A model generated the notes under the pieces. The model was not told the DNA's origin. It saw only the letters and a list, made by a program, of their open reading frames with translations, and did not search any database. Positions 5,185 to 63,612 of a stretch of 64,000 bases of DNA are shown here, in pieces; position 1 is the stretch's first letter, and each line of letters starts with the position of its first letter. A program made the position numbers and the translations under genes. The DNA is from an uncultured Clostridia bacterium. GTDB taxonomy: Bacteria > Bacillota > Clostridia > TANB77 > CAG-508. Location of the stretch: NCBI GenBank assembly GCA_934182605.1, contig CAKPRQ010000005.1:3788-67787 (forward strand). The letters are read 5' to 3'.

Positions 5185-5244
5185 ATTAATTTCACTATCC
5201 CTACTCAGCATAAACAATTTTCAATAAAATTATTTATGCAAAAT

Positions 5245-5280: not shown

Positions 5281-5310
5281 CTTATTCTATGGATAAAATT
5301 ATTTCACTTT

Positions 5311-34115: not shown

Positions 34116-34589
34116 ATGGAGATAGGAGTGAAATTTATGATTGTAAAAAAAGCTGGTACTATTTTATTAAATTTAGAAAACAAACAAATTGGTATAGTTT
34201 ATCGTAAAGATAGAAATGATTATTCTTTTCCCAAAGGACATTTAGAAAATAATGAGAATTTGCTAGAATGTGCTGTTAGAGAAACAGAAGAAGAAACCTT
34301 AAGGGCAAACCACTTACTTATTAATAAAGAAATAGATATTTTGAAATATACTACATCATTAAACGAAAATGTAGAAGTATATATGTATATTTCAGTAGAC
34401 GATGGTCCTACAAATAAGAATATTCCTATAAAAGATCAAGAGATTTTACAATGGACTAATTTAGCTAATGTTGAAAACCTTTTATCTTATGATAATCTAA
34501 AAGAATTTTGGATGGAAATAAAAGAAACTATAAACGATATTCTTGAGAGTAATGGCATTTTATCTCCAGCTATTTTTACAGATGCTTAG
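34116..34589 (+). CDS. NUDIX hydrolase
   Basis: Nudix box GHLENNENLLECAVRETEEETL. Confidence 0.7.
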   Translation: MEIGVKFMIVKKAGTILLNLENKQIGIVYRKDRNDYSFPKGHLENNENLLECAVRETEEETLRANHLLINKEIDILKYTTSLNENVEVYMYISVDDGPTNKNIPIKDQEILQWTNLANVENLLSYDNLKEFWMEIKETINDILESNGILSPAIFTDA

Positions 34590-34648
34590 GTGGTGGCATT
34601 GATTTTTTAGAAAAAAGTTGTGATGCTTTGAAAAGAGAATTTAAATAG

Positions 34649-34894
34649 GAAATTTCAGCAAATATAATTATAAAAGATTTTCTTGGAATATCAGAAAATA
34701 TTTTTACATATAAAGGAAAAAATGCACATGAATTAACATTATTTTATTCTATAGAAATCCCAGATGAATACTATAAAGATGAGTATAAAATACTCGACGA
34801 AGACAATAATATTAAGGCTAAGTGGATTAATATTAATGAATTTAAAAATAGAAGTAAAATCTTATACCCTGAAGAAGTATTTAAGTATCTTTAA
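34649..34894 (+). pseudogene. Remnant of a second NUDIX-like gene (C-terminal part, no start codon)
   Basis: An open frame encodes ...NAHELTLFYSIEIPDEY...KAKWININEF..., resembling a NUDIX C-terminal half. The N-terminus and Nudix box are absent. Confidence 0.3.
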
Positions 34895-34962
34895 TACTTC
34901 TTCAGTTTAAACTTTTCTAGAGTTTATTTTTATAATTATAAATTTATAATATCTTTATTAAA

Positions 34963-35349
34963 TCATTCAATGTTATATTCCCATAAACTCAAACGTCCTT
35001 TAGCCTCAATTGACTCTTCAAACACCTCTATATCTGTAACTTGCCACCCATAATTTTCTTGAAATGAACTTTTAGTATAAATTTCACTATTTTCTTTTAA
35101 CAACATTTCTTTAAATTCAGGAGACATTTTTATACAATCAACCAATCTAACTTTTCCTAATATCTTTCCTAGTGGAAGATTTTCTGGAAGATATTTTGCT
35201 AATCTTTTTATTGCTTCCTTATCAACACTTTTTCCAGCATGTATCAACAACTCTCCTCTATACTTTGTTTGCCAACTTCTAAATTCATATCTCTTATCCC
35301 CTTGCATTATCAAAGTAGCCCACGGCTGTTTTATTGTTAAAACTTTCAT
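34963..35349 (-). CDS. ASCH (PUA-like) domain protein, translationally appended to jetD
   Basis: Contains IKQPWATLIMQGDKRYEFRSWQTKYRGELLIH. It has its own AAGGAG RBS in the 15-nt gap after the jetD stop. A paralog lies at 62293-62685. Confidence 0.6.
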   Translation of the reverse strand: MKVLTIKQPWATLIMQGDKRYEFRSWQTKYRGELLIHAGKSVDKEAIKRLAKYLPENLPLGKILGKVRLVDCIKMSPEFKEMLLKENSEIYTKSSFQENYGWQVTDIEVFEESIEAKGRLSLWEYNIE

Positions 35350-35364
35350 TTTATAACTCCTTTT

Positions 35365-36708
35365 CTACATCAACCACTCACCTATTATTTTCTTTAAATT
35401 TCCTATATTTAATTCCTCATAAGATGCAAGTTTTTTATCTAAAACTAATTTTACTAATTTTACCAAACCCTCATCTTCTATTTTCTTTAATTTCTTTAAT
35501 CTAACATTATCTAATCTTGTATTTGATAAATTATTTAGATAAGTCTCTTCATCAAATCCTACTAGCTCAATATTATCTTTAAATCTTGTTTTTAATTTAT
35601 CAGCTATTTGCATTCCTTCAGGATCAATATCTCCTGAATAATACAAATGCACATTATTTTCTACTAACTTTTTTAATAATATTATTCCTGCCAGTTTAAC
35701 CTGTCCATATGTACACACAATTGGAATCTTTTTGTATTTTTCATCTTGAATAATATTAGTAAACACTGCTGGATTTTCTACTATTAAACACTTTTTTATA
35801 CTCGATGTTACATTATCAACTTTACTTAAATTATATAATGTTATTTGCCAAGCTTCGTTATTATTATAAAAAGCTCTCCATCCCTCATTTTCTTTATTAT
35901 TTTTATATCCAATCAAGTTTCGAGCTAATACCATATTAGACATTTCGTCTATCATTAAATTATTATTATAATAAATTTCTGCAATTTCTTCTGTACTTTT
36001 TATTCTTTTGTTTTCTTTAATTTGTTCTTCTTTTACTTGTTCTTTATTACTATTAATTCTTTTGTTTATTATTAGAAAATCTAAAAGAAATTGACCTGCT
36101 AAATTATTTCTATCTAATGAATGTGGGTTACCAGTTATTTTCGCTGAAAAAATTGGCAAGCTTATCTTTTCCTTTGATAAATTTTCTATAGCCTCAATAG
36201 CAATTTTTAATTCATTTTTTAATCTAATTGAACTTTTATTATATTCTTTTTTTATTTTTGCATACATCTCTGCATTTTCTTGCTTAATTAACTCTATAAT
36301 TTTTACAGTATTTTCACTTTTACAATAGCTCTTTATTTCATTTATAAATAACTCAAACTCCTCATTAAATCTTCTTTTTTCTTCTTTATTTGAAATAATT
36401 TCATTTGTAAAATATGTTTCTAAAATTTGTTTTATAGTTAATCCAGCAAATCTTGTTTCATCAATTCTTTTCTGAAATTTTTTTAAATTTATTGTTATAT
36501 TTTTATTTTTACTATAATCTTTTTTCATAAATCCAGATATTGCATCTTTTTCAGCTAAACTAGGATTTTCTATAACTATACTTCCGGGTAATTCTCTTTC
36601 GAAAGATTTATACTTTTGAACCATTTTTTTAAGCATCCTATCATATCCATGATTTTCTTTAAAATAACTTACTGCTTCTTCTAGTAATTTTTCCAATTTT
36701 AATATCAT
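35365..36708 (-). CDS. jetD: Wadjet JetD / MksG-like protein (DUF2220 Toprim-like)
   Basis: 447 aa. C-terminal Toprim-like motif YYSGDIDPEG. It is the last gene of a four-gene operon with an SMC-like ATPase. Confidence 0.7.
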   Translation of the reverse strand: MILKLEKLLEEAVSYFKENHGYDRMLKKMVQKYKSFERELPGSIVIENPSLAEKDAISGFMKKDYSKNKNITINLKKFQKRIDETRFAGLTIKQILETYFTNEIISNKEEKRRFNEEFELFINEIKSYCKSENTVKIIELIKQENAEMYAKIKKEYNKSSIRLKNELKIAIEAIENLSKEKISLPIFSAKITGNPHSLDRNNLAGQFLLDFLIINKRINSNKEQVKEEQIKENKRIKSTEEIAEIYYNNNLMIDEMSNMVLARNLIGYKNNKENEGWRAFYNNNEAWQITLYNLSKVDNVTSSIKKCLIVENPAVFTNIIQDEKYKKIPIVCTYGQVKLAGIILLKKLVENNVHLYYSGDIDPEGMQIADKLKTRFKDNIELVGFDEETYLNNLSNTRLDNVRLKKLKKIEDEGLVKLVKLVLDKKLASYEELNIGNLKKIIGEWLM

Positions 36709-36746
36709 TCCTTCCTAAAGCTGAAATCTAAGTAGATTTCAGCCAA

Positions 36747-39700
36747 CTAATTTAAAAGTTCTCTTACATGTCCATTCCATAAATATCTAATTACAGAGAC
36801 AACTTTTATTTTAGGATCACTTATAAGTTCATTTATTGCTAAACTTGGAATTGTATCATATTCACCCCATAATACTTGTGAATTTATAATATATTCTAAA
36901 TCAAGTTTTGTTAAAATCCTAAACATATCACGAATATTACTATCATCTACCCCTGCAAAAGCTTCATCTAAAGATATAATTCTTGGCGTATCTTTTCTTG
37001 CTGAGTCATATTTTGCCACAACAGCTGCAAATAGTGGAATATACATTGCTAAAGCTTTTTCTCCACCACTTAATTTGAAAAAGGCATTATTTGTTAATTC
37101 CTTTTTAGTATCATTACCTTTTTTATAATTAAACTGAAACTCAAACCAGGTTCTATAATCTAAAACTTCCTTCATTATATTATGGAATGATTTCATTTCC
37201 TCTTTTTGTCTTTGTTCTGCTTTAGCAAATTTACTTCTAAAATGATTTGCAACTTTTGTTACTTCTTCTTGCCTTAAAATTTTTACATCTGAATTTAAAA
37301 TATCAACTAACTCTTTTGTATCCACTTCTGTTTCGTCAGTTGCAACTTTTGGTCTCCAATTTAAACTAAATGATAATTTACTTGTTGTGTCTATGCTTTC
37401 CATTAAATCATTCATAGCCTTTACCCATTGCTTTGCGTGATAAATTCTTTCTCTAATCTTTCTACCTACAGTATTTGTTAAAATCTCTTCAAAAAGAATT
37501 CTATCATCCTCTTCTATTAACATATTAGTTTCAGTAATATTTTCAATTACTTCTTTTTCTAATCTTATTAAATTAACTTTTTGCCCTTTAACATAACATT
37601 TTACATCTTTTCTAGTTCGTCTAGCATATAAAGATAAAAATTGATTTTCATCACTTATACTATCTATATCTATTCTATTTATATCTTCTATTGTCAAATT
37701 ATAATCTACTAAATATTCTGCATTTTCTCTACACTTTATTGAAAGGTTATCCAAATAATGACTAACAGGATATGCATCTTTTTCAAATTTTTGATACTCT
37801 TTTAATATTCTATTTGCTTCTTTAGTTATTTCTTCATAACTTTCAACTACATATTTTAAATCTAATTCAATTTTAAAATTTTCTTGTAAAATTTTTGATG
37901 TTTTACTTAAAAATTGAACTTTTTCAGATATTTCTATATTTTTTTGTGTATTATTTTCTATATCTTTTCTTAAACTAACACTTTTATCTCTTAACTCATC
38001 TCTTTTTTTAGGTAGTTCTTGTTTTGCCTTTATACATTCTTCCATCTGTTTCTTTACTTCATATATATCGTCTGTCATAAGTTCTTCATTTGCTTTTATT
38101 TTTTTCTCTATTACATTATTCTCCAAATTTAATTTATTGATATCATATAGAATATCATCTAATGCCAAAAGATTTTGTTCTAAATTTTCTTTTATTATTT
38201 CTATTTTTTGATATGTATTTATTAAATTATTATGCATTTTTTCTAACTCATATATTAAATCTTTTATTTCATATACGCATTCAAGGATTTCTTTATATAC
38301 TTCAACTGTTTTCTTGAATTTTAATTTATTTGTTTTTTCCTCTAACAAAATCTTTTTATTCTTTATTTCTTCAAATTTTATATATAATTCTTCTTGCTTT
38401 GTTTTTATTTCATTTTCTATAGATTGTAAATCATTTATAGAAACCCTTAAATTATTATATTTTTCTTCTAAATCATTTTTAGGTATGAAATTTTCTAATT
38501 CTAGTTTTAATTTTTGTTTATCATTTTCAATTTTTGCTAATATCTCATTACTTTTTTCTATCTCTAAAATAATCTCTTCTTTCATTTTTAAAAGTTCTTC
38601 TATTTTTTGTTCTTTATATCTTTTTCTTGTAATTACTCCTATATATTGTGCTACTTTTTTGCTATCTGCTTTTCCTCTTAATAAACCAATTTTATATATA
38701 CCTTTTTCATCAATATAATTTTCATCATTAATATCATCAAGAAAAATTGTTTTTAAAACATTATACACCTCTTCTTTTTTTATTTCATAATTTTCTGGTA
38801 AATCAATTTTTAAAATTTGACTCAAATCGTGTTTAAACTCTTTTGGATTCCCTACTAAATATTTATCAACAAAATTATTATCTATTTCCTGAATTTTATT
38901 ATGATATTCTTTTGGTATTATTAACGCATCAAGTAATCCCATGTCCATAAGCGCTGCTTCTATATTATTACGTGTACTTTCATCCACCTCCGGCTTAAAT
39001 TCAACCGCTTTATATAATGGAATAAAAGGAATTTTCATTTCTTGTAATTTTATTCTATTTTCTACTACTGCTTTTTCTCTAATTGGTTCTGGTTCTTTCT
39101 GATTTTTCCATTCTTCTATTTCTGTTTTTATATCATTTAATTTTTTCTCATTTTCATTTTTCACTTGCTTTTCTTCAATTTCTTTTTCAAGTAATTTGGC
39201 ATCAATTTTGCTATAAGCATTACTTACTTCTATTTTTATATCATCATAACCACTTTTCTCTCCATAATTTCTCACATTTTGTGCAATTTTAATCTTATCT
39301 TCTTGAGTAATTTTTAAAATTACATTTGAAGCTTCCCATTTATACATATCTTCAATAAACTTTCCCTTTTCGTCTTCTAAAGACCTCCTATTTTGTAATA
39401 CAATATTATCTTGTTTTATTTTTTTATTCTTTGAAACTTCAAAACTTTTTTCCATATCATCATACATTTTTTCCATTGTAGCAACTTGCTCTATAATTAT
39501 TTTAGCATCTTCAATTCTATCAATATATTTTTTCAAATCATATCTTAAGCTTGAATAATTATATTGTGTATTTATATTCTTTTTTATTTCATCTATTGCA
39601 AAAAAATATTCATCATAAAAACACTCACTTGCTTTTTCTTCTATTTTAGAGGTAATATTATCAAACTCATTTTTGTATTCATCATATTTACTATTATTCT

Positions 39701-40841
39701 GTTTTATAGTATTTTCTTTTTTTCTATTTTCTACTTCTTGTGCCTCTTTTTTCATATTTTTTTCTTCTAAACTTTTTTCTATTTCTCTTTTTTTAACTTT
39801 TAATTCTTGTAAATTTTTTTCTAAGTTCCAAATTTCACTTTTGCTTAATTCTTGTTCTTTAAATTCTACAACTTTTATTTTTGCATCAATATCTTCTATT
39901 TCTCTATTTACTTCTTCATACTCTTTTTTATCTAATACGATTTTATCTTGTAATAATTTTTCTTCATTTAAAATATCTTTATATTTTTTATTCTCTTCTA
40001 CATATTGTTTAGCCTTGCTATATAACACACATTCATTATATTTTCTATAATCTACCATAATGTTATCTATAGCTTTTTTACTACTTTCTAAAAATTTTAA
40101 TTGTTCTTTTGTTTTATTCATATTCTCAATAGATTCAGAAACAGGTCTTAAATCTTCATCTGACAACCCTTGAAGCGAATTAGACATTATTTCAAGTACA
40201 GTAGATGGCCTAAACCCTTCACCTTTTGATAATTTAGGGGTCCTTATTTCTATTAACAATTTTATAAATTCTTCGTATTCTTCTATTGTTTCAAAATGAA
40301 ATATATTTTCATTTACCATTTCCATATATTCTTTTTGAGTTTCTACTACTTTACCACCTAAACCAATCCTGTTTTTTAGTTCTAATTTAGTAAGCGGAAT
40401 TTTATTTTCAACTTCTTTATATAAGAAAAAATCTTCTTTTATTCTTCTACCATCATTTAATAAAAATCCCCAAAAATTTATTGGTTGACCTTTCTTTCCT
40501 CTTAGTCCGATACCAATAGTTATATAATTTTCTGTATTAGGTTTATTAAATTCCATATATAAATAACTAGTATTTTCTTCTTTTATGTCATCACCATAAC
40601 CTAAAACATATTCTTCGATTTTTCTAGCTTTATTTCCAAAAGGATCTAATCTTTCTGGGGTCTTTTTACCATCTAATAGTAATGGTATAAAACTTTGCAT
40701 AGTTACACTTTTTCCTGAGCCATTAGTTCCTCTTAAAATCATTCTCCCATCTGAAAAGTAAAATTCCTCTTCATCATACCACCAATAATTTAATAATCCA
40801 ATTTTATTTATTTTCCACCTATTTTCCATATTTAAACTCAA
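36747..40841 (-). CDS. jetC: Wadjet JetC / MksB-like SMC-family ATPase
   Basis: 1364 aa. N-terminal Walker A GTNGSGKS. A long Glu/Lys-rich coiled coil follows. C-terminal signature LSGGEKALAMYIPLFAAV and Walker B ISLDEAFAGVDD. Confidence 0.8.
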   Translation of the reverse strand: MSLNMENRWKINKIGLLNYWWYDEEEFYFSDGRMILRGTNGSGKSVTMQSFIPLLLDGKKTPERLDPFGNKARKIEEYVLGYGDDIKEENTSYLYMEFNKPNTENYITIGIGLRGKKGQPINFWGFLLNDGRRIKEDFFLYKEVENKIPLTKLELKNRIGLGGKVVETQKEYMEMVNENIFHFETIEEYEEFIKLLIEIRTPKLSKGEGFRPSTVLEIMSNSLQGLSDEDLRPVSESIENMNKTKEQLKFLESSKKAIDNIMVDYRKYNECVLYSKAKQYVEENKKYKDILNEEKLLQDKIVLDKKEYEEVNREIEDIDAKIKVVEFKEQELSKSEIWNLEKNLQELKVKKREIEKSLEEKNMKKEAQEVENRKKENTIKQNNSKYDEYKNEFDNITSKIEEKASECFYDEYFFAIDEIKKNINTQYNYSSLRYDLKKYIDRIEDAKIIIEQVATMEKMYDDMEKSFEVSKNKKIKQDNIVLQNRRSLEDEKGKFIEDMYKWEASNVILKITQEDKIKIAQNVRNYGEKSGYDDIKIEVSNAYSKIDAKLLEKEIEEKQVKNENEKKLNDIKTEIEEWKNQKEPEPIREKAVVENRIKLQEMKIPFIPLYKAVEFKPEVDESTRNNIEAALMDMGLLDALIIPKEYHNKIQEIDNNFVDKYLVGNPKEFKHDLSQILKIDLPENYEIKKEEVYNVLKTIFLDDINDENYIDEKGIYKIGLLRGKADSKKVAQYIGVITRKRYKEQKIEELLKMKEEIILEIEKSNEILAKIENDKQKLKLELENFIPKNDLEEKYNNLRVSINDLQSIENEIKTKQEELYIKFEEIKNKKILLEEKTNKLKFKKTVEVYKEILECVYEIKDLIYELEKMHNNLINTYQKIEIIKENLEQNLLALDDILYDINKLNLENNVIEKKIKANEELMTDDIYEVKKQMEECIKAKQELPKKRDELRDKSVSLRKDIENNTQKNIEISEKVQFLSKTSKILQENFKIELDLKYVVESYEEITKEANRILKEYQKFEKDAYPVSHYLDNLSIKCRENAEYLVDYNLTIEDINRIDIDSISDENQFLSLYARRTRKDVKCYVKGQKVNLIRLEKEVIENITETNMLIEEDDRILFEEILTNTVGRKIRERIYHAKQWVKAMNDLMESIDTTSKLSFSLNWRPKVATDETEVDTKELVDILNSDVKILRQEEVTKVANHFRSKFAKAEQRQKEEMKSFHNIMKEVLDYRTWFEFQFNYKKGNDTKKELTNNAFFKLSGGEKALAMYIPLFAAVVAKYDSARKDTPRIISLDEAFAGVDDSNIRDMFRILTKLDLEYIINSQVLWGEYDTIPSLAINELISDPKIKVVSVIRYLWNGHVRELLN

Positions 40842-40896
40842 TTCCTTCTTATTATCTTATAAATTATATATTATTTTACTTTAAAAACTTTATTTT

Positions 40897-42048
40897 TTAA
40901 ACCTCATCACCTGTATTAAAATTTATTGGGTATCTACCTTTAATTTTAAAAATAATTGGCATTATCCTAAACTCTTTATCTTCTTTTCTTATCATATCAA
41001 ATTCTTTCATATATTCTACTATCTGTTTTTCTAGTTCTTCCTCATTTATTTCTCTATATTCTTTACTAAAACCTCGTCCATATTTTTCTTTTAATTCATA
41101 TATTACTTTAGAAAATTCTATTTCAGAAATTAAGATTGTATCGTTGTCTTCATTTATTAACTTACCATTTTCAAATTTTTCTATTATTAGAGTATTAAAA
41201 AATATGACTACATCAGAAATTGCTTTATTAGTAGGAAAAACATTTTTAAATGGTTCATGTTCAGTAAGCAAAATATATGCACCATTTTTATGTATTTCTA
41301 AACTTGAATCTAGTATTTGGTCAACATCTTGTGATATTATATTTTTATATTGTTTTATATACATATAATCTTGATCATCTTGTTTTTCATTATATACTAT
41401 GTTTTCTGTAAATAATCTTCTATATACTCTTTGCCTTCTCTCTATTCCTTTTTCTTGGTCTAATCCTAATTGTTCTTGTTCATAAATATCAGTATATAAA
41501 TTACAATCTGAAATATTACTTGTAAAATTTCTTACAAAATATTTAGAAACACCTGTGACTTCATAAAGCACATCATTTTCTACATTATCAGCAAACTTAT
41601 TTTCATCACCATCATATAACTTTATAAAACCTAGATCTCGTATATATTTTAAGACCCTAACCATTGCTTGTCTTTGTTTAAACAAATTAAAATCTATTAC
41701 TACATCACCCAAATTAATTTCCATACTAGTACTTTGAATATAATCTACTAATTGTGAAAGTATAAATTGCTCTTTTCTTGACTTTTCTTCTAAAAAAATT
41801 AAAATTAAACACAAAAATACATATTCAAGCTTAGTATTAAATTCCTTTATTCCCATAAATTCTTGTGGAATTCCTGGAATCTTTTCTAGCTTAATAAGAT
41901 ATGGATTAACAATTAGCTTATATCCTAATTTTTGTTTTATAAAATTTAAAGTTTTCTCATCTAATTCCTGTCTTATTTGCTCGTATTTTTCATTATCTTG
42001 CTCATTTATTATCCAATAATTTTCTAGTAATTCCTCTAAAACTTTCAT
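40897..42048 (-). CDS. jetB: Wadjet JetB / MksE-like protein (larger than typical)
   Basis: 383 aa in the second position of the operon. The assignment rests on position only; no motif was recognised. Confidence 0.45.
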   Translation of the reverse strand: MKVLEELLENYWIINEQDNEKYEQIRQELDEKTLNFIKQKLGYKLIVNPYLIKLEKIPGIPQEFMGIKEFNTKLEYVFLCLILIFLEEKSRKEQFILSQLVDYIQSTSMEINLGDVVIDFNLFKQRQAMVRVLKYIRDLGFIKLYDGDENKFADNVENDVLYEVTGVSKYFVRNFTSNISDCNLYTDIYEQEQLGLDQEKGIERRQRVYRRLFTENIVYNEKQDDQDYMYIKQYKNIISQDVDQILDSSLEIHKNGAYILLTEHEPFKNVFPTNKAISDVVIFFNTLIIEKFENGKLINEDNDTILISEIEFSKVIYELKEKYGRGFSKEYREINEEELEKQIVEYMKEFDMIRKEDKEFRIMPIIFKIKGRYPINFNTGDEV

Positions 42049-42100
42049 TTATTTACCTTTCTTTTTTTTATTTTTTAATTAAATAAATTATATAATTTAA

Positions 42101-43597
42101 TTATGTGATAATAAGTTCATATGCTGGCATTTCTAGCACTCCATCAGTACACCTCATTTTGCACCTTGTTTTTTTATCCGGCAATATGACTTCTACCTTT
42201 TCTCCATATTCTGTAATAGTTCTTTTATTTTCTGTTTGATTTGCTTGACTAATCCATTTCAAAATGTTTTTTCTTACAATAGGTTCAATCACTGGTAGGT
42301 CTTTTATAACTATTTTTCCCTGTACAATATATTTTCTAACCAATTTTTCCTCTTCTTCCCTTTGTTTTAAATATTCCTCTATTTTTTGTTTTTTTATTTC
42401 TGTTTTATCTTCTATTATTGTCTTTTCTTTTTTCTCCTTAAATTCTCTTATTCTAGGTTTTATTTCAATTTCTTGTCTAACTTCTTCTAAAATACTACTA
42501 TTTACATTATCTGTTTCTCTCTCAAAATTTCCTTTTAAATGTCTAGTATTTTTCATGCCAAAAACTAAACTAGATAATTTATGTGCTTCTTCTATTGTCT
42601 CAGTATTACAAAACATTTCACAAATCTTTTTATATTCCGCTTTTCTACTATTTATATTTCCTTTTGATTCTGCAATTTGATTTGCTATTCTAGTTATTTT
42701 TCTTATAATCTCACTAGTTTTTTCTTCTATATTTTGAACTTCACTTTCCCTTTTTTCGTCTCCAATAAACCATTTCTTTATGTTTTCCCATTTTTCTTTA
42801 TTTCTATCTTTCATTTCTTGCTCTGGAATATCCTCTTCTAATTTATCAATCCTTATAATCTTTTTTTGTGCTTGCCAAACTTTATCTAACACTTTAATTT
42901 CTGTATCTTTATTTACAGTTTTTAATATTCTTTCTATTTCATAAGAATTATCTTGAAGCGCTTTAATAAACTCTCGTAAATACATTACTAAGTCATTTTT
43001 ACTTGCAATAAACTTAGAACTTTGTGCAACTTCTTCCATTCTTATATTATAAAAAGATTTAATATATGCTTGATAATTTTCATTTAATCTTTTAAAATCT
43101 GCATTTAAGCTCTCCCACCAACCATTTACTTTACTTTCAATTTCATTTTCCATTTCATTAATTTCTGCTATTTCTTCTTTTATTTTTTCTATTAATGTAG
43201 GATCTAAAGATGACCCTTCAATATGTAAATTTTCAAGCTCTACAACTAAACTTTCTATTTTTACTGCAAAATCTGATAATTGATATCTATATTTTTTATT
43301 CTTAAATTCTTCTAATGTATATGCAACAGAAGTATCTTGAATTGCAATTAAATTCTTCCACTCAGTTAAAGCAGCTAAATCATTATCACATTGTTCTATT
43401 GTATAATTTTCAAACCCTTTTTTCCCTACAAATTCATTAAATATATCTTCTTTATATAACATATAATTCATTTTTTGATTTTGTATATAAAAAAAACGCA
43501 AAATAGGTCTATACCTTTTTGTGTTTTCTTTTGTTAAATATGCTGTTTCTAAAATTGTTTTTGTTAGTTTATCTGTTATTTCCATTATATCTCCCAT
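42101..43597 (-). CDS. jetA: Wadjet JetA / MksF-like kleisin-type protein
   Basis: 498 aa and first gene of the operon. Its size and position fit JetA (DUF3375). Confidence 0.5.
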   Translation of the reverse strand: MGDIMEITDKLTKTILETAYLTKENTKRYRPILRFFYIQNQKMNYMLYKEDIFNEFVGKKGFENYTIEQCDNDLAALTEWKNLIAIQDTSVAYTLEEFKNKKYRYQLSDFAVKIESLVVELENLHIEGSSLDPTLIEKIKEEIAEINEMENEIESKVNGWWESLNADFKRLNENYQAYIKSFYNIRMEEVAQSSKFIASKNDLVMYLREFIKALQDNSYEIERILKTVNKDTEIKVLDKVWQAQKKIIRIDKLEEDIPEQEMKDRNKEKWENIKKWFIGDEKRESEVQNIEEKTSEIIRKITRIANQIAESKGNINSRKAEYKKICEMFCNTETIEEAHKLSSLVFGMKNTRHLKGNFERETDNVNSSILEEVRQEIEIKPRIREFKEKKEKTIIEDKTEIKKQKIEEYLKQREEEEKLVRKYIVQGKIVIKDLPVIEPIVRKNILKWISQANQTENKRTITEYGEKVEVILPDKKTRCKMRCTDGVLEMPAYELIIT

Positions 43598-43691
43598 TTT
43601 TATATTTTAAAATATTTTATTTTACTGAATTAAATTTACATAAATATTTTACTATGTTTTTACATTTTTTTCAATATAAATATATAATTTT

Positions 43692-44099
43692 TTATTGAAA
43701 ACTTTCTATATCATATGGCCAATCAATTATTCCACCAAAATTATATATTTTGGTATATCCCATTTGAGATAATTTTTTAGCTGATAATTCACTTCTATAT
43801 CCACTTCTACAATAAACTAATATCACTTGATTTTTATCTTTTGGTTCACTATTAGCTCTTTCTTCAATTTCATAATCTGGGATATTTATTGCATTTGGAA
43901 TATGACCTTCATTATATTCTTCTTGAGAACGAACATCTAAGATAATAAATCCCGAGTTATTATCCATATATTCCTTTGCCTCTTCTGCTGATATATTTAT
44001 GTAATTTGTTGTTGTGTTTTTATTCATCATAAATCCTCCTATTGAAATTATAATTAATATACTAACTAGTAATATTATTAGAAATGTAATTTTTTTCAA
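43692..44099 (-). CDS. membrane-anchored rhodanese-domain sulfurtransferase
   Basis: N-terminal TM helix followed by a rhodanese fold with the active-site loop CRSGYRS. Confidence 0.7.
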   Translation of the reverse strand: MKKITFLIILLVSILIIISIGGFMMNKNTTTNYINISAEEAKEYMDNNSGFIILDVRSQEEYNEGHIPNAINIPDYEIEERANSEPKDKNQVILVYCRSGYRSELSAKKLSQMGYTKIYNFGGIIDWPYDIESFQ

Positions 44100-44379
44100 C
44101 CTTTCCCTCCAAAATATTTGTATAATATTTTTAATAAATACTTTTTACTATTTCTTTTAAATTATATCATATATTTTTTTATAAATATATATTTTAATTT
44201 TATTTTTTTATTTCTATTTAAAGTTTATTAATGAAAAATGTATTTTCACAAATTATTACATGTAGCTATTTATAAGTTAATACCCAAATTGTATCACTAT
44301 AGCTATGTTTTGTGGATTTTATACTGTGCTTTAACAATTTTTATATTCTTTATAATTTGAACCTTCGGGTTATGAGCCC

Positions 44380-44530
44380 GTAAGTGTTGATATTGCTGGG
44401 TTTGGTGTAATTGTGTTATGCTTTGTTAGAGTAAGTTAATCGGTGAAATTGGTGATGCTTTGTTTGTGTTAAATTGTGTTTAAAATCGTGTAGTTTTGTA
44501 GAGAGTGTGACCAAGGTGTGACTAAGAAAC
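44380..44530. repeat. Strongly GT-skewed (plus strand) repeat-containing segment at the left edge of the integrase element
   Basis: Short direct repeats (attgtgtt twice, tgctttgtt twice, gtgtgac twice). Composition is unlike the surrounding AT-rich DNA. Confidence 0.3.
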
Positions 44531-44540
44531 CACTTCTTAA

Positions 44541-44574
44541 AGATGTAAAAAATACACATATTATAATGTGTATT
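44541..44574 (-). terminator. Terminator hairpin (aatacacat / atgtgtatt) plus T-tract for the TPR gene
   Basis: Seen directly, immediately 3' of the stop at 44575. Confidence 0.5.
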
Positions 44575-46878
44575 TTATAAAATATCTTTTATTATCTTTT
44601 TTAATATTCCCCATATTAATTCTGCTTCTTCCGTTTCAATATTCATAGTTTTTCTAAGCTCTACACTTGGATGTATTAAGTTTCTATAATTTCGTAAAAA
44701 TTGTGTCAAATGATAATCTGTCTGATGTATTATATATTCTTTTTGAGCAACTTCTATTAAATCAGCTAATCCCATATCTTTAACTTTAATTTTTCTCTCT
44801 TTACCATCTTTTATTAAACTATAATTTTTAATTCCCTTCTCTTGTACTTTATAATTTAGTAAAGCCTCTGCCATGCTTCCTGATAATACAATAGCAGTTT
44901 TTTCTTGTTTACTTGCCATTGCTATTGCACATTCTTTAAAATCTCTTAATAGTATTTCAACAATTTCTTTATCTTCTATTTTTCTTATTTTATTTTTTAA
45001 TTCATCTGTATATCCAATACTACTTAAATAGTCAATGTTTATATTTCCTGAAATATTTTCATATTCTTTATTAGCTTCTATATACTCTATTCTTTCTTGA
45101 AGATAATCTCTTACCAATTCATTTAATCTATATTGGTTTCTTCCCCAATCATCTTGACTTTTAATTTTCACTATATATTTTTTATTAGTAAATGTCTCAA
45201 ATAATTCTTGAGCTTTTTCTGGACTAGTCTTTAAAATTTTAGGTCGTTCATTATATGAACATGTTATTATGCCATCTTCTACTTGCTCATATAATAATTC
45301 CAATTTTGATAGCACCCATACTTTTTCTTTTTGAATTTCTTCATATGCTTCATATAAATCACTTATTTTCTTATTAACATCCTTTAAATTTGAAGATGAA
45401 ATATTATCCTCTGGATCTGATGCTGATGCAATTTCAAAATACTCCTTAGCTTTAAACAGATTTCCCTCTTCTTTATAGATAACACCTAAATTATTGTTAT
45501 ATGCAGAATTATTAGGGTTTTCTTCTAATAAATATTCATATAATTGTCTTGCCACATTTTTATCCCTATGAGAATATGCTATTTCAAAAATATTCTTCAT
45601 TTTCAATAAGTGTCTAATTTTAATATCTTTTACTAATCTATCTATATAATCATACATATCTCTTTTGAATAACTCTTTTACTATGCAATCTATAAAAGTC
45701 CTTATTAAATCTCCTACTGAAATATCATAATTTTGAATATTATCCTTTATAATTATTAATCTATTTACAATTTTTATTAAATCTTCTTTATTTGTATATT
45801 CTAAATAAAAATCATATTTCTTCTTTCCAAAGACTTCTCTAGCAATTCTATTCTCTGCATATTGTTTTATTGCAAAGTCAAATGCTTCAAAATTTTTTTC
45901 TACATTTATATACATATTAAATATTAGAATATATATTTCTTTTTCATAGTCGTAATATTTTAAAGCTGATATTAAATTCTTTATATCCTTTAATTTATAA
46001 TTTATGTCTTCTCCATTATTAATCTTGATATTTAAATATGAGCCTTTCATTATTCTTATTTTTGCTTGTTTTTTATTCGTAAAAGAGTTCTCTAATTCTT
46101 CGAAAATTTTCATATATAAATCATTTAAATCAACATCAATTTCATTTTTCCAAAAATACATATCCTCTATTTGACATTTTATTGGAATTTTTTCCATTAT
46201 TTCACTAACATTTTCTTCATCTTCTTCCAAATATAATAGTATAATATAGTGCCAGTATTTTAGTTCATTCTTAATATCTTCATTAATTATATCTGTTATA
46301 TTTTTTATTATTTCTTCTTTATTTTCTAATTCTTTGTTTTCCAATATTTCACTTGATATTTTTAACAAATAATAAAAATGCTCTTTTGACTTATCTTTAA
46401 ATTTCACTTTTTCTATTAATTCTACTGTTCTTTTATAATTCTTCTCTCTATATGAATATTCTATAAAACTTTTATAAATATTTTCATCTGCAATATTGTT
46501 TTCTAAGAAATACTCTATAATTTTGTTCTTTTCTTTATTACTTTCTCTAATAAAAAGTCTTTTATATAATTCAATATCCTGTTCAAATTCTTTTAGTCCT
46601 TTTTTTAAAAAACCTATTGCAATATTGTTATCTTCAACCTCTAAGTCGTCGTATCTATAATATGAAAATCTAAAACTCGGAATGCAATTAATACTCTTTT
46701 CATAATAATATTTCGCTTTTAAAGTATTTCTCTCTTCTTTTCGTTCTTCTATCATTCCTAGCATATGATATAACCTTGCAAATTCTTCTTCATGTTTCTT
46801 ATCTTTTAGCATAATTTCAATTAGTTTTTTTGCTTCATTATCTTTATTTTGTTTTAATAGTTCAATTAGTTCTTCCAT
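44575..46878 (-). CDS. large TPR-repeat protein with a C-terminal HEPN-like (Rx6H) domain
   Basis: 767 aa. TPR-like repeats include AYNNNLGVIYKEEGNLFKAKEYFEIASASDP. The C-terminus reads ...QFLRNYRNLIHP..., an Rx4-6H motif. Confidence 0.45.
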   Translation of the reverse strand: MEELIELLKQNKDNEAKKLIEIMLKDKKHEEEFARLYHMLGMIEERKEERNTLKAKYYYEKSINCIPSFRFSYYRYDDLEVEDNNIAIGFLKKGLKEFEQDIELYKRLFIRESNKEKNKIIEYFLENNIADENIYKSFIEYSYREKNYKRTVELIEKVKFKDKSKEHFYYLLKISSEILENKELENKEEIIKNITDIINEDIKNELKYWHYIILLYLEEDEENVSEIMEKIPIKCQIEDMYFWKNEIDVDLNDLYMKIFEELENSFTNKKQAKIRIMKGSYLNIKINNGEDINYKLKDIKNLISALKYYDYEKEIYILIFNMYINVEKNFEAFDFAIKQYAENRIAREVFGKKKYDFYLEYTNKEDLIKIVNRLIIIKDNIQNYDISVGDLIRTFIDCIVKELFKRDMYDYIDRLVKDIKIRHLLKMKNIFEIAYSHRDKNVARQLYEYLLEENPNNSAYNNNLGVIYKEEGNLFKAKEYFEIASASDPEDNISSSNLKDVNKKISDLYEAYEEIQKEKVWVLSKLELLYEQVEDGIITCSYNERPKILKTSPEKAQELFETFTNKKYIVKIKSQDDWGRNQYRLNELVRDYLQERIEYIEANKEYENISGNINIDYLSSIGYTDELKNKIRKIEDKEIVEILLRDFKECAIAMASKQEKTAIVLSGSMAEALLNYKVQEKGIKNYSLIKDGKERKIKVKDMGLADLIEVAQKEYIIHQTDYHLTQFLRNYRNLIHPSVELRKTMNIETEEAELIWGILKKIIKDIL

Positions 46879-46968
46879 AGTAAATCCTTTCGATACTTTT
46901 TAACTATTATATTAACATTATTTAATCAAATATTTTGTCGAAACTTGTAGAAAATTATACTTTTATAA

Positions 46969-47796
46969 TTATTTATGGTTATCTATTTTATCAATATATT
47001 CATCCCAATCTTGTTCATTTCCTTCCATTTCGTGCAACCAAAAATACATAAATAATATTTCAAATTCTTGTTTTTTACCTTTAGTAAATGATTTCTTTGG
47101 CATGTTCCTATATAATGAATCTATATTAAATAAATTATCTCCATTTTTATAATCATATTCATATCCTCTATATGATTCACTATTTTTCTTTTTGTGTTTA
47201 CTTCCCCATATTTCTGGAGTTTCATAAAAATAATTTACCCAATCGAAAGCAAAAGCACATAAATTTACACCATATTTATTTTTCGTTTTCTCTATCCATT
47301 CATCTATTTCTTCATTTATCGATGGAATATTCCACCTTGATTGATTACTTTCCACTCTATGATATTCTTTTAAAAATTTGTATAACATTTCTTCTTGCCC
47401 TTTTAAATATGGAAATCTCTTTATATACTCAGCATAGCACTCATAAGATAAACTTCTGAATTCACTTTCTTCACTTAATAAATAAAAATAAGTTTGTTCT
47501 ATCCTTGTGCCTCTTCCTATTGACTTATCTAAAAAGTTTCCATATTCAGAATATATATTTACTAACCATTCTCTTATTTCAGAATCATAATCTCTTAATT
47601 TTTTACGATATTTATCTAATTTTTCTTCTTTTGCTATTGTTGTTTCCTCTAGTTCTGTAATATCTAAATAATTATTAAAATATTCAAATATATAGTTTAC
47701 ACATATTTTTAAATTTTCATCTTTTTTATTTTTATCAAATTCATTTATTCCATCTTCTTTTTTTCTTTTTTCAACATATTCTTCTAACTTCATCAT
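46969..47796 (-). CDS. hypothetical protein (middle gene of the three-gene cassette)
   Basis: 275-aa acidic protein rich in aromatic residues. No motif was recognised. Confidence 0.4.
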   Translation of the reverse strand: MMKLEEYVEKRKKEDGINEFDKNKKDENLKICVNYIFEYFNNYLDITELEETTIAKEEKLDKYRKKLRDYDSEIREWLVNIYSEYGNFLDKSIGRGTRIEQTYFYLLSEESEFRSLSYECYAEYIKRFPYLKGQEEMLYKFLKEYHRVESNQSRWNIPSINEEIDEWIEKTKNKYGVNLCAFAFDWVNYFYETPEIWGSKHKKKNSESYRGYEYDYKNGDNLFNIDSLYRNMPKKSFTKGKKQEFEILFMYFWLHEMEGNEQDWDEYIDKIDNHK

Positions 47797-47817
47797 ATTA
47801 TTTTTTCTCCTATCTGA

Positions 47818-48579
47818 TTAAAATATACTTTCAAACTCCAATGGCACTATATCTTCATAAAGCAATGTATATTGCGAATTAACTTGCCTATAATCATGGT
47901 AATGTCCAAAATACCATTTTTTAAATTCACACTTTTCTGATATTTGCTGCAAATAATCTGTTAAACAATCTTTCTTATATTTTCCTGCACCTAATATAAC
48001 TTGTACACTTGTTGGACAACAATGTGAAATAATATAATCAACTTTATAATTTACTTTTTCTAAATTTTTAATTCCATTTTCCATCTCTTCATTTGTTGGC
48101 AATTCTAAATCCCACCATGAGTAATCTCTAATTCTAAAATATGCACCTCTTTTTCTAAAGTTATATATCTTTTCTTCTTCATCTAAGTTTAATATTCCAT
48201 CTTGTATATCATGTGAAGATGCTCCACCAAATGCAAATATTTTTTTATTATCTATTTCAAAAATTTCACCTCTCATTAGGTGTAATACTGAATCTCTAAT
48301 TTTGTGTACCTTCCCTCCGTGCCACTTTTTCTCTGGATAGTTATATAATCTAGTAAAATTCTCATGATTACCATCTACAAATAATGTTGTAAAATTCTTT
48401 TTATTTAACCAATCTAACCCATACTTTTCCTGTTCACTCTCGTTTTCAAATGTCCAAACTCCGCCAAAGTCTCCGCATATAATAACATAATCATCTTTTG
48501 TCATTTCTGTTTGAATAGGAAAGTTATCCATTGAAAATCTTGTAAAGTCAGAATGGCAATCTCCTGTTATATAAATCAT
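47818..48579 (-). CDS. calcineurin-like metallophosphoesterase
   Basis: MPP motifs GDCHSD, GDFGGVW and GNHEN are present. Confidence 0.7.
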   Translation of the reverse strand: MIYITGDCHSDFTRFSMDNFPIQTEMTKDDYVIICGDFGGVWTFENESEQEKYGLDWLNKKNFTTLFVDGNHENFTRLYNYPEKKWHGGKVHKIRDSVLHLMRGEIFEIDNKKIFAFGGASSHDIQDGILNLDEEEKIYNFRKRGAYFRIRDYSWWDLELPTNEEMENGIKNLEKVNYKVDYIISHCCPTSVQVILGAGKYKKDCLTDYLQQISEKCEFKKWYFGHYHDYRQVNSQYTLLYEDIVPLEFESIF

Positions 48580-50063: not shown

Positions 50064-51518
50064 TTATTCTAGTCCTGACTCACTTAAATCAACTTTTATA
50101 TCTTTATTCTCTCCAATTACTCCACCATGATATAAATAATGTAATTTTCCATTTATTTTTCTAAAACCCATATGTGAATATATTATTTCTTTAGTTGATA
50201 ATTTACTTAATATTTTTGATGTATCTTTAAAATATTCTTTATTATTTCCATTTGGACTTATTCTAGGCTCAAAGTTCCATGTTCCATTTGCAATCCAATT
50301 TAAGCTCTCAAAGTCTTTTATATTTAGTGTTATTTTTGGCAACTCTTCTCCTGTATTTAAAATAGTTTTTAAAGTAACATCTGTCCTTGTTTCATTTCCA
50401 TCATTATATGTAATAAACTTTGTTGGAATTGCAATAAAATTACTTATTACTTTATCTTCTAATACATCCTTTTTTATTATTTTCTTAACCAACCCTCTGT
50501 CAGAAAATTCATAACTATGAGGTCTTAATAAATCATTATATTGTTTATACTTATCTTCTGATATTTCAAATTCATCATTATATGCATATCCTTCTAATAA
50601 TCTTGGACAATAATAATTATCACTTTTATATTCTATACTTTTTCCTCCATAAAAGAAATCTGCTAAATTTTGTTTTGATGTATCTGGATTAAAATCTTTA
50701 AATATTTCTAATAATTTTTTAGGGATTTTTTCAGCAGTTTTATAATCCACAATGGGTTCTTCCAAAACATAACCAACCCTAAATTTATGTTGTTCCTCAC
50801 TATGGCTAAATGTATAATATGCAAATGTAGGCATAAACTCTATTTTCTTACAATATTCTAGTAATTTATTTATTGTTGCATGTTCTTTTTCATTTGCACA
50901 TATTTTTATTCCATTTTTTGTGTTATCAAAATCCACTAAAAATAATTGTTGCCCTTTAAAATTTTGTTTTGCATTCGACTTTATTCCTGATGGAATTATT
51001 GTTTTTCCTTTTACAATATTATTTAATATTTCATCTAATGAATATTTTTTTATTTCAAGATTAGGTATTCGATTTTTTATATATGCCGCCTCTTTCTTAT
51101 CTGGCTTGCTTGTATGTTCTATTATATCAAACATACAATTTATATCTCTCGGTTTATTACCTTTATCAAATACTAAATCTGTAATTTTTTCTTTTGTTCT
51201 ATTTTTACTGAAGCAAGACATATTTTCTTTTATCTCTATATTTAATCCAAAGTCATTAATCAATTGTTTTGCTGCATCAAAATATGTTGGTAAATTTTTA
51301 TATTGCATTACAAATGTTACCATATTACCACTATGCTCTTTTGCTGCAAAATCTGTAAAACCTTTTTCATCATTTACCCAGAACGACGGATGCTTTTCAT
51401 TTCTAAATGGCGAACAATATCCAATACTATTTCCAGAATGTTGTTGCGGTTCACCTAAATAATATCTTGCTACTTGTTTATTTGTTAATTTACTTCTAAT
51501 TTCATCATATATATTCAA
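50064..51518 (-). CDS. primase module (CHC2-type zinc finger) of a phage/plasmid primase-helicase
   Basis: CHC2-like zinc-finger motif YCSPFRNEKHPSFWV. It ends at a TAA that is in frame with the helicase module. Confidence 0.55.
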   Translation of the reverse strand: MNIYDEIRSKLTNKQVARYYLGEPQQHSGNSIGYCSPFRNEKHPSFWVNDEKGFTDFAAKEHSGNMVTFVMQYKNLPTYFDAAKQLINDFGLNIEIKENMSCFSKNRTKEKITDLVFDKGNKPRDINCMFDIIEHTSKPDKKEAAYIKNRIPNLEIKKYSLDEILNNIVKGKTIIPSGIKSNAKQNFKGQQLFLVDFDNTKNGIKICANEKEHATINKLLEYCKKIEFMPTFAYYTFSHSEEQHKFRVGYVLEEPIVDYKTAEKIPKKLLEIFKDFNPDTSKQNLADFFYGGKSIEYKSDNYYCPRLLEGYAYNDEFEISEDKYKQYNDLLRPHSYEFSDRGLVKKIIKKDVLEDKVISNFIAIPTKFITYNDGNETRTDVTLKTILNTGEELPKITLNIKDFESLNWIANGTWNFEPRISPNGNNKEYFKDTSKILSKLSTKEIIYSHMGFRKINGKLHYLYHGGVIGENKDIKVDLSESGLE

Positions 51519-52197: not shown

Positions 52198-52911
52198 ATG
52201 TCTAAAAAGGAGATAGTTATGAAACAAGACTCAAAGCAAATTCATCTATATATAAATAATGATACATGTTATCTTATAGATATTGAAAAAAAAGCTGTTA
52301 CTAAAGAATTTAATTTAGGTAATTTTGTAATTGAATTATTTGAAGAAACTAATGCAACTGAAAAACATTTAATTGAATTTTTGTTAAATAATCATGCAGA
52401 TTCATTATATAATTTAGGTAATGAATTATCAAAAATGGGACCATTCAAATGTAGAATTTTTAGTGGAATTAAAATAGAGAATGATTTACAAATGCCATTA
52501 GAAATTTATACTTTTAAATCTTATCATGATTTTATTTTATTCATTTTATATAGAGCCGCTGCTTTAAATATTCAATTTAATAAATGTAAAAATTGTGGCA
52601 AATATTTTGTTCCTACAACTAAAAGTAATGAAATATATTGTACTCGTGTTTTTAGAAATGGTAAGACTTGTAGAGATATCGGTTATGAGCTTTCTGTACA
52701 ATCTGATGAAATAACAAAGTTATATAGAAATGCATATAAAACTCAAAATGCCAAGAAGCAAAGAAATAAGGATATTGCTAATGTAGATAAACTATTTGCC
52801 AATTGGGCTTCTAAGGCTAAAGAGATGTATAAACTTTGTAAAGATAATAAAATTAAACTTGATGAACTTTCAAAATGGCTAAAAGATAATCAAGATTGGA
52901 TTAATAAGTAG
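52198..52911 (+). CDS. hypothetical zinc-ribbon protein upstream of the integrase
   Basis: 237 aa with a four-cysteine zinc-ribbon-like cluster (CKNCGKYF...CTR...KTCR). Confidence 0.4.
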   Translation: MSKKEIVMKQDSKQIHLYINNDTCYLIDIEKKAVTKEFNLGNFVIELFEETNATEKHLIEFLLNNHADSLYNLGNELSKMGPFKCRIFSGIKIENDLQMPLEIYTFKSYHDFILFILYRAAALNIQFNKCKNCGKYFVPTTKSNEIYCTRVFRNGKTCRDIGYELSVQSDEITKLYRNAYKTQNAKKQRNKDIANVDKLFANWASKAKEMYKLCKDNKIKLDELSKWLKDNQDWINK

Positions 52912-52923: not shown

Positions 52924-54108
52924 TTGGCAGGAAACATTCTATATATGGGAAATGAAAAATATAGACTTCGTGTTAGTAATGGTTTCGATTCAAATGGAAA
53001 AAGAAAATATTTCAATAAAACTGTTACTTGTTCATCTAAAAGGGAAGCCGAAAAAGAACTTGCAAAATTTATCACTTCAATTGAAGGCGGTTGCACGTAT
53101 TCTGCAAAAAAAGTTATATTAAATGATTTTAGTAAACAATGGTTAGAAACATATGTAAAACCTAATCTTTCACCAACAGCTTACCAAAGTTATAATGAAA
53201 AATTAAATAAACATATTTTACCATATTTAGGTAACAAGCGACTTGATAAAATAAAACCTTTGGATTTGGATAATCTGTATAATTTTTTGCTAACTAAACC
53301 AACTAATAGAAAAGACAAAAATGGTAATTACAAAACTTTATCTCCAGCTAGTGTACATCGTGCTCATGAAATATTATCTAGCATTTTCAGTAATGCTCTT
53401 AGGTGGGACATGGTTTCATATAATCCATGTACTAAAGTTGTTCAACCTAAATTTAAACGTACTAAAATGACATGTTATGATGAAGAAACATCTAAAAGAT
53501 TAATAAATGCCCTACTTAAGAAAGCTCCTATAAAATATAAATGCTTTGTTATTCTTGCTATATTAACTGGTTTTAGACGTGGTGAATTAGTTGGTTTGCA
53601 TTGGGATGATATTGATTTTAAAAATCATAAAATAAGTATTAAACGAAGTGCCTATTATTTAAGTGGTCAACCTACTTCTGAGAAGAGTCCTAAAACTGAT
53701 TTAAGTACTCGTACAATAGCAGTACCTAGTATTTGCTTTGATTTGCTTAAACAATGGAGATGTGAGCAAGGTAAGATGAGACTTGCATTGGGTAAATCTT
53801 GGAATGGTGCTAAAAATGTTTTTACTACTGCTGATGGTAGAATTATGAATCCTGCAACTGGTCCTAAATGGTTTAGTTCTTTCTTAACTAGAAATGGTTT
53901 TCCTCATATTCGTTTTCATGATTTGAGACATACTTTTGCTACTTTGCTTATTTCTGGTAATGTTGATGTTAAGACTGTTTCTCATAAATTAGGTCATGCT
54001 AGTACTGATACTACTTTGAAGTTTTATGTTCATGATTTGGAGTCTACCGATAGGGCTAGTGCGGAGTTGTTGGAGAATATGTTGGTTAAAGATGTGAATA
54101 TTGTATAA
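52924..54108 (+). CDS. int: tyrosine site-specific recombinase (phage integrase family)
   Basis: 394 aa with catalytic R...HDLRHTFAT...LGHASTDTTLKFYVH (R-H-R-Y). Confidence 0.85.
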   Translation: MAGNILYMGNEKYRLRVSNGFDSNGKRKYFNKTVTCSSKREAEKELAKFITSIEGGCTYSAKKVILNDFSKQWLETYVKPNLSPTAYQSYNEKLNKHILPYLGNKRLDKIKPLDLDNLYNFLLTKPTNRKDKNGNYKTLSPASVHRAHEILSSIFSNALRWDMVSYNPCTKVVQPKFKRTKMTCYDEETSKRLINALLKKAPIKYKCFVILAILTGFRRGELVGLHWDDIDFKNHKISIKRSAYYLSGQPTSEKSPKTDLSTRTIAVPSICFDLLKQWRCEQGKMRLALGKSWNGAKNVFTTADGRIMNPATGPKWFSSFLTRNGFPHIRFHDLRHTFATLLISGNVDVKTVSHKLGHASTDTTLKFYVHDLESTDRASAELLENMLVKDVNIV

Positions 54109-57248: not shown

Positions 57249-57250
57249 AA

Positions 57251-63470: not shown

Positions 63471-63612
63471 AGTTTATCACCTTTCTATTTTTTGCAATTA
63501 CATCATAGATTATATTTTACTTTTTCAATAAAGTATTGCACATTTTTTCTAGGCTTTTCTGATTCTGTATTATCATAATATTTTTCAATATTTCTCATAT
63601 TATCAAATTCCT

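Follow-up and report, generated by a model that had tools for sequence, protein, structure and literature searches.

Does a small ASCH-domain gene that begins just after the end of a Wadjet operon belong to that anti-plasmid system as a fifth component, or is it a gene of its own beside which the operon has come to lie? The question arises in a 64,000-nucleotide (nt) stretch of DNA from an uncultured Clostridia bacterium (contig CAKPRQ010000005.1 of assembly GCA_934182605.1, positions 3,788 to 67,787; hereafter the window), in which four large genes, jetA to jetD, are followed on the same strand by the ASCH gene. A sequence-only reading of the window had described a JetABCD operon, suggested to be of a divergent subtype, with an appended fifth gene. 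The comparisons presented here make it very probable that a canonical type II Wadjet operon sits in a variable slot of a defense island, and that the ASCH gene is an independent, conserved neighbor and not a part of Wadjet.

The five open reading frames (ORFs) on the minus strand are recovered in the ORF list at the positions first given for them, with lengths of 498, 383, 1364, 447 and 128 amino acids (aa) (Table 1), and the gaps between the four jet genes measure 52, 55 and 38 nt. The motifs quoted for JetC (GTNGSGKS, LSGGEK, LDEAF) and JetD (YYSGDIDPEG) are present in the translations, where they form part of a Walker A motif (RGTNGSGKS), a signature motif (LSGGEK) and a Walker B motif (ISLDEAF) in JetC, and accompany the sequence VENPAVF in JetD. 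The residues E311-N-P and Y357-S-G-D-x-D-x-E-G do not vary among 21 aligned JetD homologues. The jetC frame opens with TTG, and translation probably starts at the ATG at position 40829, four codons in, as called in relatives, which would give a protein of 1360 aa.

Typing with hidden Markov models upheld the assignment of these genes to Wadjet. JetA matches Pfam DUF2397 over its full length (4e-128), the PADLOC model JetA2 (PDLC00540; 1e-172) and TIGR02677 (303 bits, cut-off 166). JetB matches DUF2398 (2.5e-89), JetB2 (7e-127) and TIGR02678 (181 bits, cut-off 125), and its residues 5-381 align with JetB of Neobacillus vireti (PDB 9QE0_D, 389 aa; E = 1.9e-66). JetC has a Pfam SbcC_Walker_B match, reaches 1387 bits (E = 0) against JetC2 over protein residues 5-1363 and 771 bits against TIGR02680 (cut-off 463), and aligns end to end with N. 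vireti JetC (PDB 9QE0_A, 1371 aa; E = 1e-198). JetD exceeds the Pfam gathering scores of DUF3323 (1.8e-35), DUF2399 (2.7e-22) and JetD_C (6e-7) and matches JetD2 (PDLC00556) at 3e-124; it falls below the cut-off of TIGR02679 (141.6 bits, cut-off 196) and found no match among PDB sequences. Three of the four proteins therefore pass the curated NCBIfam cut-offs (TIGR02677, TIGR02678 and TIGR02680), and the best PADLOC match of every one of the four is a type II model covered to nearly its full length (profile lengths 496, 388, 1365 and 430 for ORFs of 498, 383, 1364 and 447 aa). Taken together, these matches mark jetA to jetD as a canonical and intact Wadjet operon of type II. By homology with the type II system reconstituted from N. 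vireti and with type I systems, the kleisin JetA, the tandem-KITE protein JetB and the SMC ATPase JetC would form a loop-extruding sensor that stalls after fully extruding a small circular DNA, and the stalled sensor would license the Toprim nuclease JetD to cut that circle, resulting in plasmid restriction.

The position of the operon is best understood from the points at which homology to related loci begins and ends. When the window between 30 and 48 kb was compared by blastn with eight ASCH loci (L001-L008), similarity was confined to 34966-35350, which is exactly the ASCH ORF, and to 47811-47998, which is the 3' end of a metallophosphoesterase gene; DNA homology to ASCH loci without Wadjet begins only at the ASCH ATG. 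The 253-aa metallophosphoesterase is 82-85 % identical (tblastn) to the product of the gene directly upstream of ASCH in four of these loci (L001-L004), and in L001-L003 the distance between the two genes is 60 nt. As homology is limited to these two flanking genes, which are 60 nt apart in relatives, a 12.4-kb block replaces the 60-nt spacer in the window. In L005-L007 the metallophosphoesterase orthologue lies 4.6 kb upstream of ASCH, and the slot holds different cargo (AAA+/S8 peptidase genes). These breakpoints identify the Wadjet operon as cargo of the 12.4-kb block, in a variable slot of a chromosomal defense island that is bounded by two conserved genes, those for the metallophosphoesterase and for ASCH, and they mark ASCH as an independently conserved stand-alone gene, since its ORF, and neither of its flanks, is what the relatives lacking Wadjet have in common with the window. 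Neither target-site duplications nor flanking direct repeats were found at the junctions at 35350 and 47810, where only AT-rich low-complexity matches occurred. A blastn match extending about 70 nt upstream of ASCH in L004 was considered as a possible jetD remnant and was rejected as AT-rich similarity only.

The contexts of ASCH orthologues elsewhere point in the same direction. The protein has 2061 database homologues, of which the best 120 are all 82-100 % identical to it, and a metagenome scan yielded 80 ASCH loci at 80-100 % identity, in 65 of which the upstream sequence extends for 1.4 kb or more. Jet genes stand beside ASCH in only one of the 65 (L045), whose ASCH is 100 % identical to that of the window and which represents the same strain, its contig being that of the same-strain locus L013; contigs with 100 % identical ASCH carry the same locus as the window. 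At 84-85 % identity three arrangements occur, none with Wadjet: a metallophosphoesterase gene, 60 nt, ASCH and an AAA_21+RloB pair; type I restriction-modification (R-M) genes, a HAD gene, the metallophosphoesterase gene, AAA+/S8 peptidase genes, ASCH and AAA_21+RloB; and a NUDIX gene overlapping ASCH by 4 nt, ASCH and a desulfoferrodoxin gene. Altogether, ASCH orthologues occupy more than 20 distinct gene contexts, and clustering of the neighbors gave 20 upstream and 28 downstream families. Upstream are found DUF7695 in 23 loci, where it overlaps the ASCH start, and NUDIX in 11 (a count that takes in the look-up loci L015-L018), in addition to TnpV and an integrase; downstream are found AAA_21+RloB in 23 loci (taking in the look-up loci L001-L008) and a CobB-like SIR2 gene with a HAD gene in 20, in addition to a TehB-like methyltransferase and Cas6. 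One contig (L053) carries two ASCH paralogues 2 kb apart (5001-5381 and 7390-7773), which share 84 % and 80 % identity with the ASCH of the window.

The same adjacency was sought from the side of jetD. The 21-homologue JetD alignment was used to scan one genome per GTDB species, which returned 26 loci with JetD 34-60 % identical to that of the window, nearly all in metagenome-assembled genomes of gut Clostridia, plus Paramaledivibacter and Thermotalea. No intact ASCH gene was detected by tblastn within 6 kb of the JetD relative in any of the 26, where matches were limited to fragments of 15-19 aa. The first ORFs downstream of jetD are heterogeneous across the scanned loci, and a Pfam scan of 28 of them found no ASCH domain, identifying SpoIIID, rhodanese, Ham1, CorA, Sua5, YbeY, integrases and transposases instead. 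ASCH is likewise absent downstream of jetD in two metagenomic loci whose JetD is 61 % (L126) and 55 % (L130) identical, and from type II operons carried by megaplasmids of Bacillus and Alicyclobacillus (L132 and L133), which have the same gene sizes and four genes only. Among the loci examined, adjacency of jetD and ASCH is confined to the strain of the window, to L125 (JetD 89 % identical) and to a truncated remnant in L019, and the identity of JetD homologues drops fast, from 100 to 89, 74 and 61 %. Since relatives do not conserve ASCH beside jetD, the proposal that it is an appended fifth Wadjet gene is unsupported and fails on the refuting condition stated with it.

Several other features of these type II loci were recorded. 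An uncharacterized ORF of 582-584 aa follows jetD at about 80 nt in four species genomes (L026 7342-9090, L036 7358-9112, L040 1106-2860 and L041 7342-9090), making it a more recurrent neighbor of type II jetD than ASCH. The closest species-level Wadjet relatives, L019 (7356-7634) and L020 (7305-7311), look decayed, the former with a truncated JetB and an ASCH remnant, the latter with an apparent jetD frameshift near residue 391. In contigs from two samples with 100 % identical ASCH, L010 (4521-8603) and L013/L045, jetC is split into ORFs of 965 and 335 aa, which suggests either pseudogenization of Wadjet in a sub-lineage or an assembly error.

The observation that most favors a connection between the two elements is the junction itself, which reads from the jetD stop codon TAG through AAAAGGAGTTATAAA to the ATG of ASCH, and the 15-nt spacer with its AAGGAG is present as originally reported. 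Scans of this interval for promoters and terminators found nothing resembling a terminator and no match to a promoter beyond chance level; in DNA of 25 % GC the matches are as many as in shuffled sequence, and the scans can neither show nor exclude a promoter for ASCH. Beyond the ASCH stop lies a strong predicted hairpin (dG -21.8 kcal/mol, z = -3.3, with 0 of 200 shuffles folding as well), which the terminator scan did not call. Since neither a terminator-like site nor an above-chance promoter match lies between jetD and ASCH and a strong hairpin follows ASCH, the co-transcription that had been proposed is plausible as read-through. The Wadjet-containing block would have been inserted beside a pre-existing ASCH gene and would have ended just upstream of its ribosome-binding site, and because of this ASCH would probably be transcribed by read-through from jetD, a coupling of position and not of function. 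In other genomes ASCH overlaps upstream NUDIX or DUF7695 genes by 4 or 20 nt; being tightly coupled to whichever gene lies upstream, it is coupled positionally and not specifically to Wadjet.

The protein itself supports the ASCH assignment made from the sequence (Pfam PF04266, E = 5e-11, 43.6 bits, cut-off 21.2), and its best PDB match is the ASCH domain of human TRIP4 (2e-10), with TTHA0113 of T. thermophilus at 0.006. Its octapeptide G17-D-K19-R-Y-E22-F-R24 conforms to GxKxxExR, aligns with GIKRVEGR of TRIP4 and is retained by 111 of 120 close homologues. For the PUA-like beta-barrel fold of the family, an AlphaFold2 model built from a shallow alignment of 20 sequences was of low quality, with a mean predicted local distance difference test (pLDDT) score of 55.9. 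In a 2026 preprint, nineteen ASCH proteins, including TthASCH, EOLA1 and TRIP4_ASCH, are reported to remove N4-acetylcytidine (ac4C) from tRNA, and in these three GKER-type proteins the Lys and Glu of the motif are essential for the removal (bioRxiv 10.64898/2026.02.27.708502). The octapeptide places the window protein in the GKER subgroup, and as a protein of the GxKxxExR type its most likely activity would be amidohydrolysis of N4-acetylcytidine on tRNA or the free nucleoside. Its recurrent neighbors, genes for NUDIX proteins, an SIR2 deacylase and a HAD phosphatase, would fit a role in nucleoside or RNA housekeeping.

A number of observations weigh against a purely incidental neighborhood. 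The junction is tight, with 15 nt, a good ribosome-binding site and neither a terminator nor an above-chance promoter match, and the locus with 89 % identical JetD (L125) has the identical arrangement of TAG, 15 nt and ATG. In L019, with JetD 59 % and JetC 76 % identical, all that remains of the ASCH ORF directly after the jetD stop is its final ~50 nt (~16 codons), beyond which come the usual spacer between ASCH and AAA_21 and the AAA_21 gene; by its sequence, the ASCH gene of this locus is destroyed by a junction after jetD. As the same adjacency is found as a vestige at 59 % JetD identity, the neighborhood may have arisen before this single strain did, and jetD and ASCH are likely co-expressed. 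The 26 genome loci came from a scan with narrow peptide patterns that returned only Clostridia-type JetD2 relatives. JetB of L019 is truncated (matching residues 209-383 only), and Wadjet itself is possibly decayed there. Finally, ASCH orthologues stand amid defense genes in several lineages (AbiL-like AAA_21+RloB, Cas6, type I R-M), and some defense-related role of ASCH is conceivable. As a separate matter, L019 had been considered as proof that Wadjet works without ASCH, an argument weakened by the truncation of its JetB.

An unlikely alternative that draws on these defense-gene contexts is that ASCH is a generic defense-island gene, a stand-alone or modular immunity or regulatory factor that, for example, alters tRNA ac4C during infection and accompanies many cassettes, not Wadjet specifically. 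In its favor, orthologues are found beside AAA_21+RloB, Cas6, type I R-M, an SLFN-like helicase, integrases and TnpV, the protein matches the phage family phrog_3193 (7e-39), and there is a weak N-terminal match to the PADLOC candidate PDC-M11B (7e-6, residues 3-30). This last match, however, spans only the conserved N-terminal motif, and a core gene flanking a hotspot would show the same association with defense genes. In addition, in ~20 loci the genes that come directly after ASCH encode a CobB-like SIR2 deacylase and a HAD phosphatase, and in ~11 ASCH itself follows a NUDIX gene with a 4-nt overlap, which gives these loci a nucleotide or housekeeping look.

We consider it very unlikely that the tight and possibly long-lived junction reflects a co-option within this Clostridia lineage, in which an ac4C-erasing or nucleic-acid-binding ASCH protein would modulate Wadjet or would serve as an accessory shared by the many defense cassettes that come to adjoin it. 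Highly improbable, too, is the narrower proposal that ASCH was recruited in this lineage as an accessory fifth Wadjet gene, co-transcribed and functionally coupled, for instance by sensing or processing modified nucleic acid in order to tune JetABCD. The spacer with its ribosome-binding site and lack of a terminator, the identical junction in L125 and the ASCH remnant right after a 59 %-identical jetD in L019 all speak for it. Against it, no intact ASCH follows jetD in the 26 genome, two metagenomic and two plasmid type II loci, jet genes are missing from 64 of the 65 ASCH orthologue loci, the ASCH of L019 is cut down to ~16 codons, and the homology breakpoints fit insertion beside a pre-existing gene. 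Furthermore, the four purified N. vireti proteins alone cleave circular, and not linear, DNA in vitro (bioRxiv 10.1101/2025.03.10.642339), a type II system at work in vitro with four proteins. A literature search for Wadjet together with ASCH found no relevant paper, its one match being to an author called Ascher.

There is next to no chance that the jet genes represent a new and divergent subtype of Wadjet, as a large JetB and JetC had suggested, because, while these proteins (383 and 1364 aa) do exceed their type I counterparts, their lengths equal those of the type II profiles (388 and 1365), of TIGR02678 and TIGR02680 (376 and 1356) and of the N. vireti chains (389 and 1371), the alignments to type II run end to end, and the Bacillus and Alicyclobacillus type II operons have equal sizes. 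The full-length matches to the PADLOC and TIGR type II models and the end-to-end N. vireti alignments thus rule this reading out and make both sizes usual for type II, not larger than typical. Wadjet-II KITE genes are characteristically larger (JetB of N. vireti has 388 residues and a tandem KITE arrangement, that of E. coli 242), and the coiled coil of type II JetC is long (bioRxiv 10.1101/2025.03.10.642339).

With the canonical type II operon and its independent ASCH neighbor as the favored reading, the remaining features of the region can be set out (Table 1). The window has ~25 % GC throughout and contains housekeeping genes, and is therefore chromosomal. The rhodanese-domain gene of the inserted block is at the same place in same-strain contigs (L009-L012). 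The 275-aa ORF and the 767-aa TPR protein gene, which occupy 44575-47796 on the minus strand of the block, matched no Pfam, PADLOC, PHROG or NCBIfam family beyond TPR repeats, and by their position in the block they could be an uncharacterized defense pair. By its gene content, the Wadjet block is within a larger mobile and defense island.

Table 1. Coordinates (window positions) of the Wadjet operon, the ASCH gene and surrounding features.
Feature	Position	Strand	Description
NUDIX hydrolase gene	34116-34589	+	157 aa, convergent with ASCH; Pfam NUDIX 3e-11
Hairpin	34869-34905	-	13-bp stem ~60 nt past the ASCH stop; possible transcript end, without an adjoining U-run
ASCH gene	34963-35349	-	Stand-alone, 128 aa, GxKxxExR type; Wadjet neighbor
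jetD-ASCH spacer	35350-35364	-	15 nt, carries the ASCH ribosome-binding site; right-hand junction of the inserted block
Inserted block	35350-47810	-	12.4 kb relative to L001-L003: 275-aa ORF, 767-aa TPR protein, rhodanese, jetABCD
jetD	35365-36708	-	Type II Toprim nuclease effector, 447 aa
jetC	36747-40841	-	Type II SMC-like ATPase, 1364-aa ORF from TTG
jetB	40897-42048	-	Type II tandem-KITE subunit, 383 aa
jetA	42101-43597	-	Type II kleisin subunit, 498-aa ORF; relatives start at Met5, giving 494 aa
Rhodanese-domain gene	43692-44099	-	135 aa; part of the block, with jetA 94 nt downstream; Pfam Rhodanese 1.6e-21
Metallophosphoesterase gene	47818-48579	-	253 aa; left-hand conserved flank of the variable slot; phrog_1649 2e-42
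Primase-like gene	50064-51518		Upstream part of the island
DUF6076 gene	52198-52911		Upstream part of the island
Tyrosine integrase	52924-54108	+	Upstream part of the island
Type I R-M hsdR/S/M	54126-60905		Upstream part of the island

Further observations concern the far side of ASCH and the makeup of the island. Between the intact NUDIX gene and ASCH, a second NUDIX-like fragment reads GGGIDFLEKSCDALKREFK*EISAN...KYL* (asterisks mark stops) on the plus strand (34580-34890), and it looks like a pseudogene because of the in-frame stop inside its Nudix box. This stretch differs between strains whose ASCH is 100 % identical, and the NUDIX gene that overlaps the ASCH start by 4 nt in other lineages is a different one. 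Farther away, ~28 kb from ASCH, are two minus-strand fragments that resemble genes flanking ASCH in relatives, one like the TehB-like methyltransferase (63509-63598; 30 aa, 87 % identity) and one like a 96-aa ORF (63838-63963; 42 aa, 60 % identity). In L130 (5878-7724) a 55 %-identical Wadjet II operon is immediately followed by MazG-like and SLFN-type helicase genes, and genes of the same types are found 3-6 kb upstream of ASCH in L001 (1978-5090), which suggests shuffling of cassettes inside a single large island.

Biochemical reconstitution of type II Wadjet has already been achieved, and as one more operon of that family the locus, as it stands, matters little. It does provide a caution, as a 15-nt gap and a common transcript are no evidence of a single system when the upstream operon is mobile defense cargo, and it provides a landmark, the interval between the metallophosphoesterase and ASCH genes, for variable defense cargo in uncultured gut Clostridia. 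Were ASCH to modulate Wadjet, RNA or nucleoside modification chemistry would be tied to SMC-based plasmid immunity, but the comparative evidence is against this.

Among known systems, the operon is closest to the type II Wadjet of Neobacillus vireti LMG 21834 (PDB 9QE0/9QE1; the TIGR02677-02680 cassette), with which it shares the same four genes in the same order, the same Pfam, TIGRFAM and PADLOC families, JetB and JetC of equal length that align end to end, and the ATPase and Toprim motifs. It differs in its host, an uncultured gut Clostridia bacterium of ~25 % GC, in a JetD that stays below the TIGR02679 cut-off although its PADLOC JetD2 match is strong, and in the small ASCH gene 15 nt after jetD, which would be a positional neighbor only. 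The ASCH protein resembles the GKER-type proteins (the TRIP4 ASCH domain, EOLA1 and TTHA0113/TthASCH), which are reported to be ac4C amidohydrolases or tRNA ac4C erasers, in its Pfam ASCH domain, its conserved Lys/Glu/Arg octapeptide and its size of ~120-130 aa, and unlike the YqfB-type GKTR subgroup it has Glu in place of Thr. In contrast to defense-island hotspots, no integrase, att site or target-site duplication is tied to the 12.4-kb block, and the downstream side of ASCH is variable as well, so that ASCH stands alone as a conserved gene with a variable stretch on either side. The region is otherwise like such hotspots, with conserved flanks (metallophosphoesterase and ASCH), interchangeable cargo (the 60-nt spacer, the AAA+/S8 peptidase genes or the Wadjet II block) and type I R-M, integrase, AbiL-like and Cas6 genes nearby.

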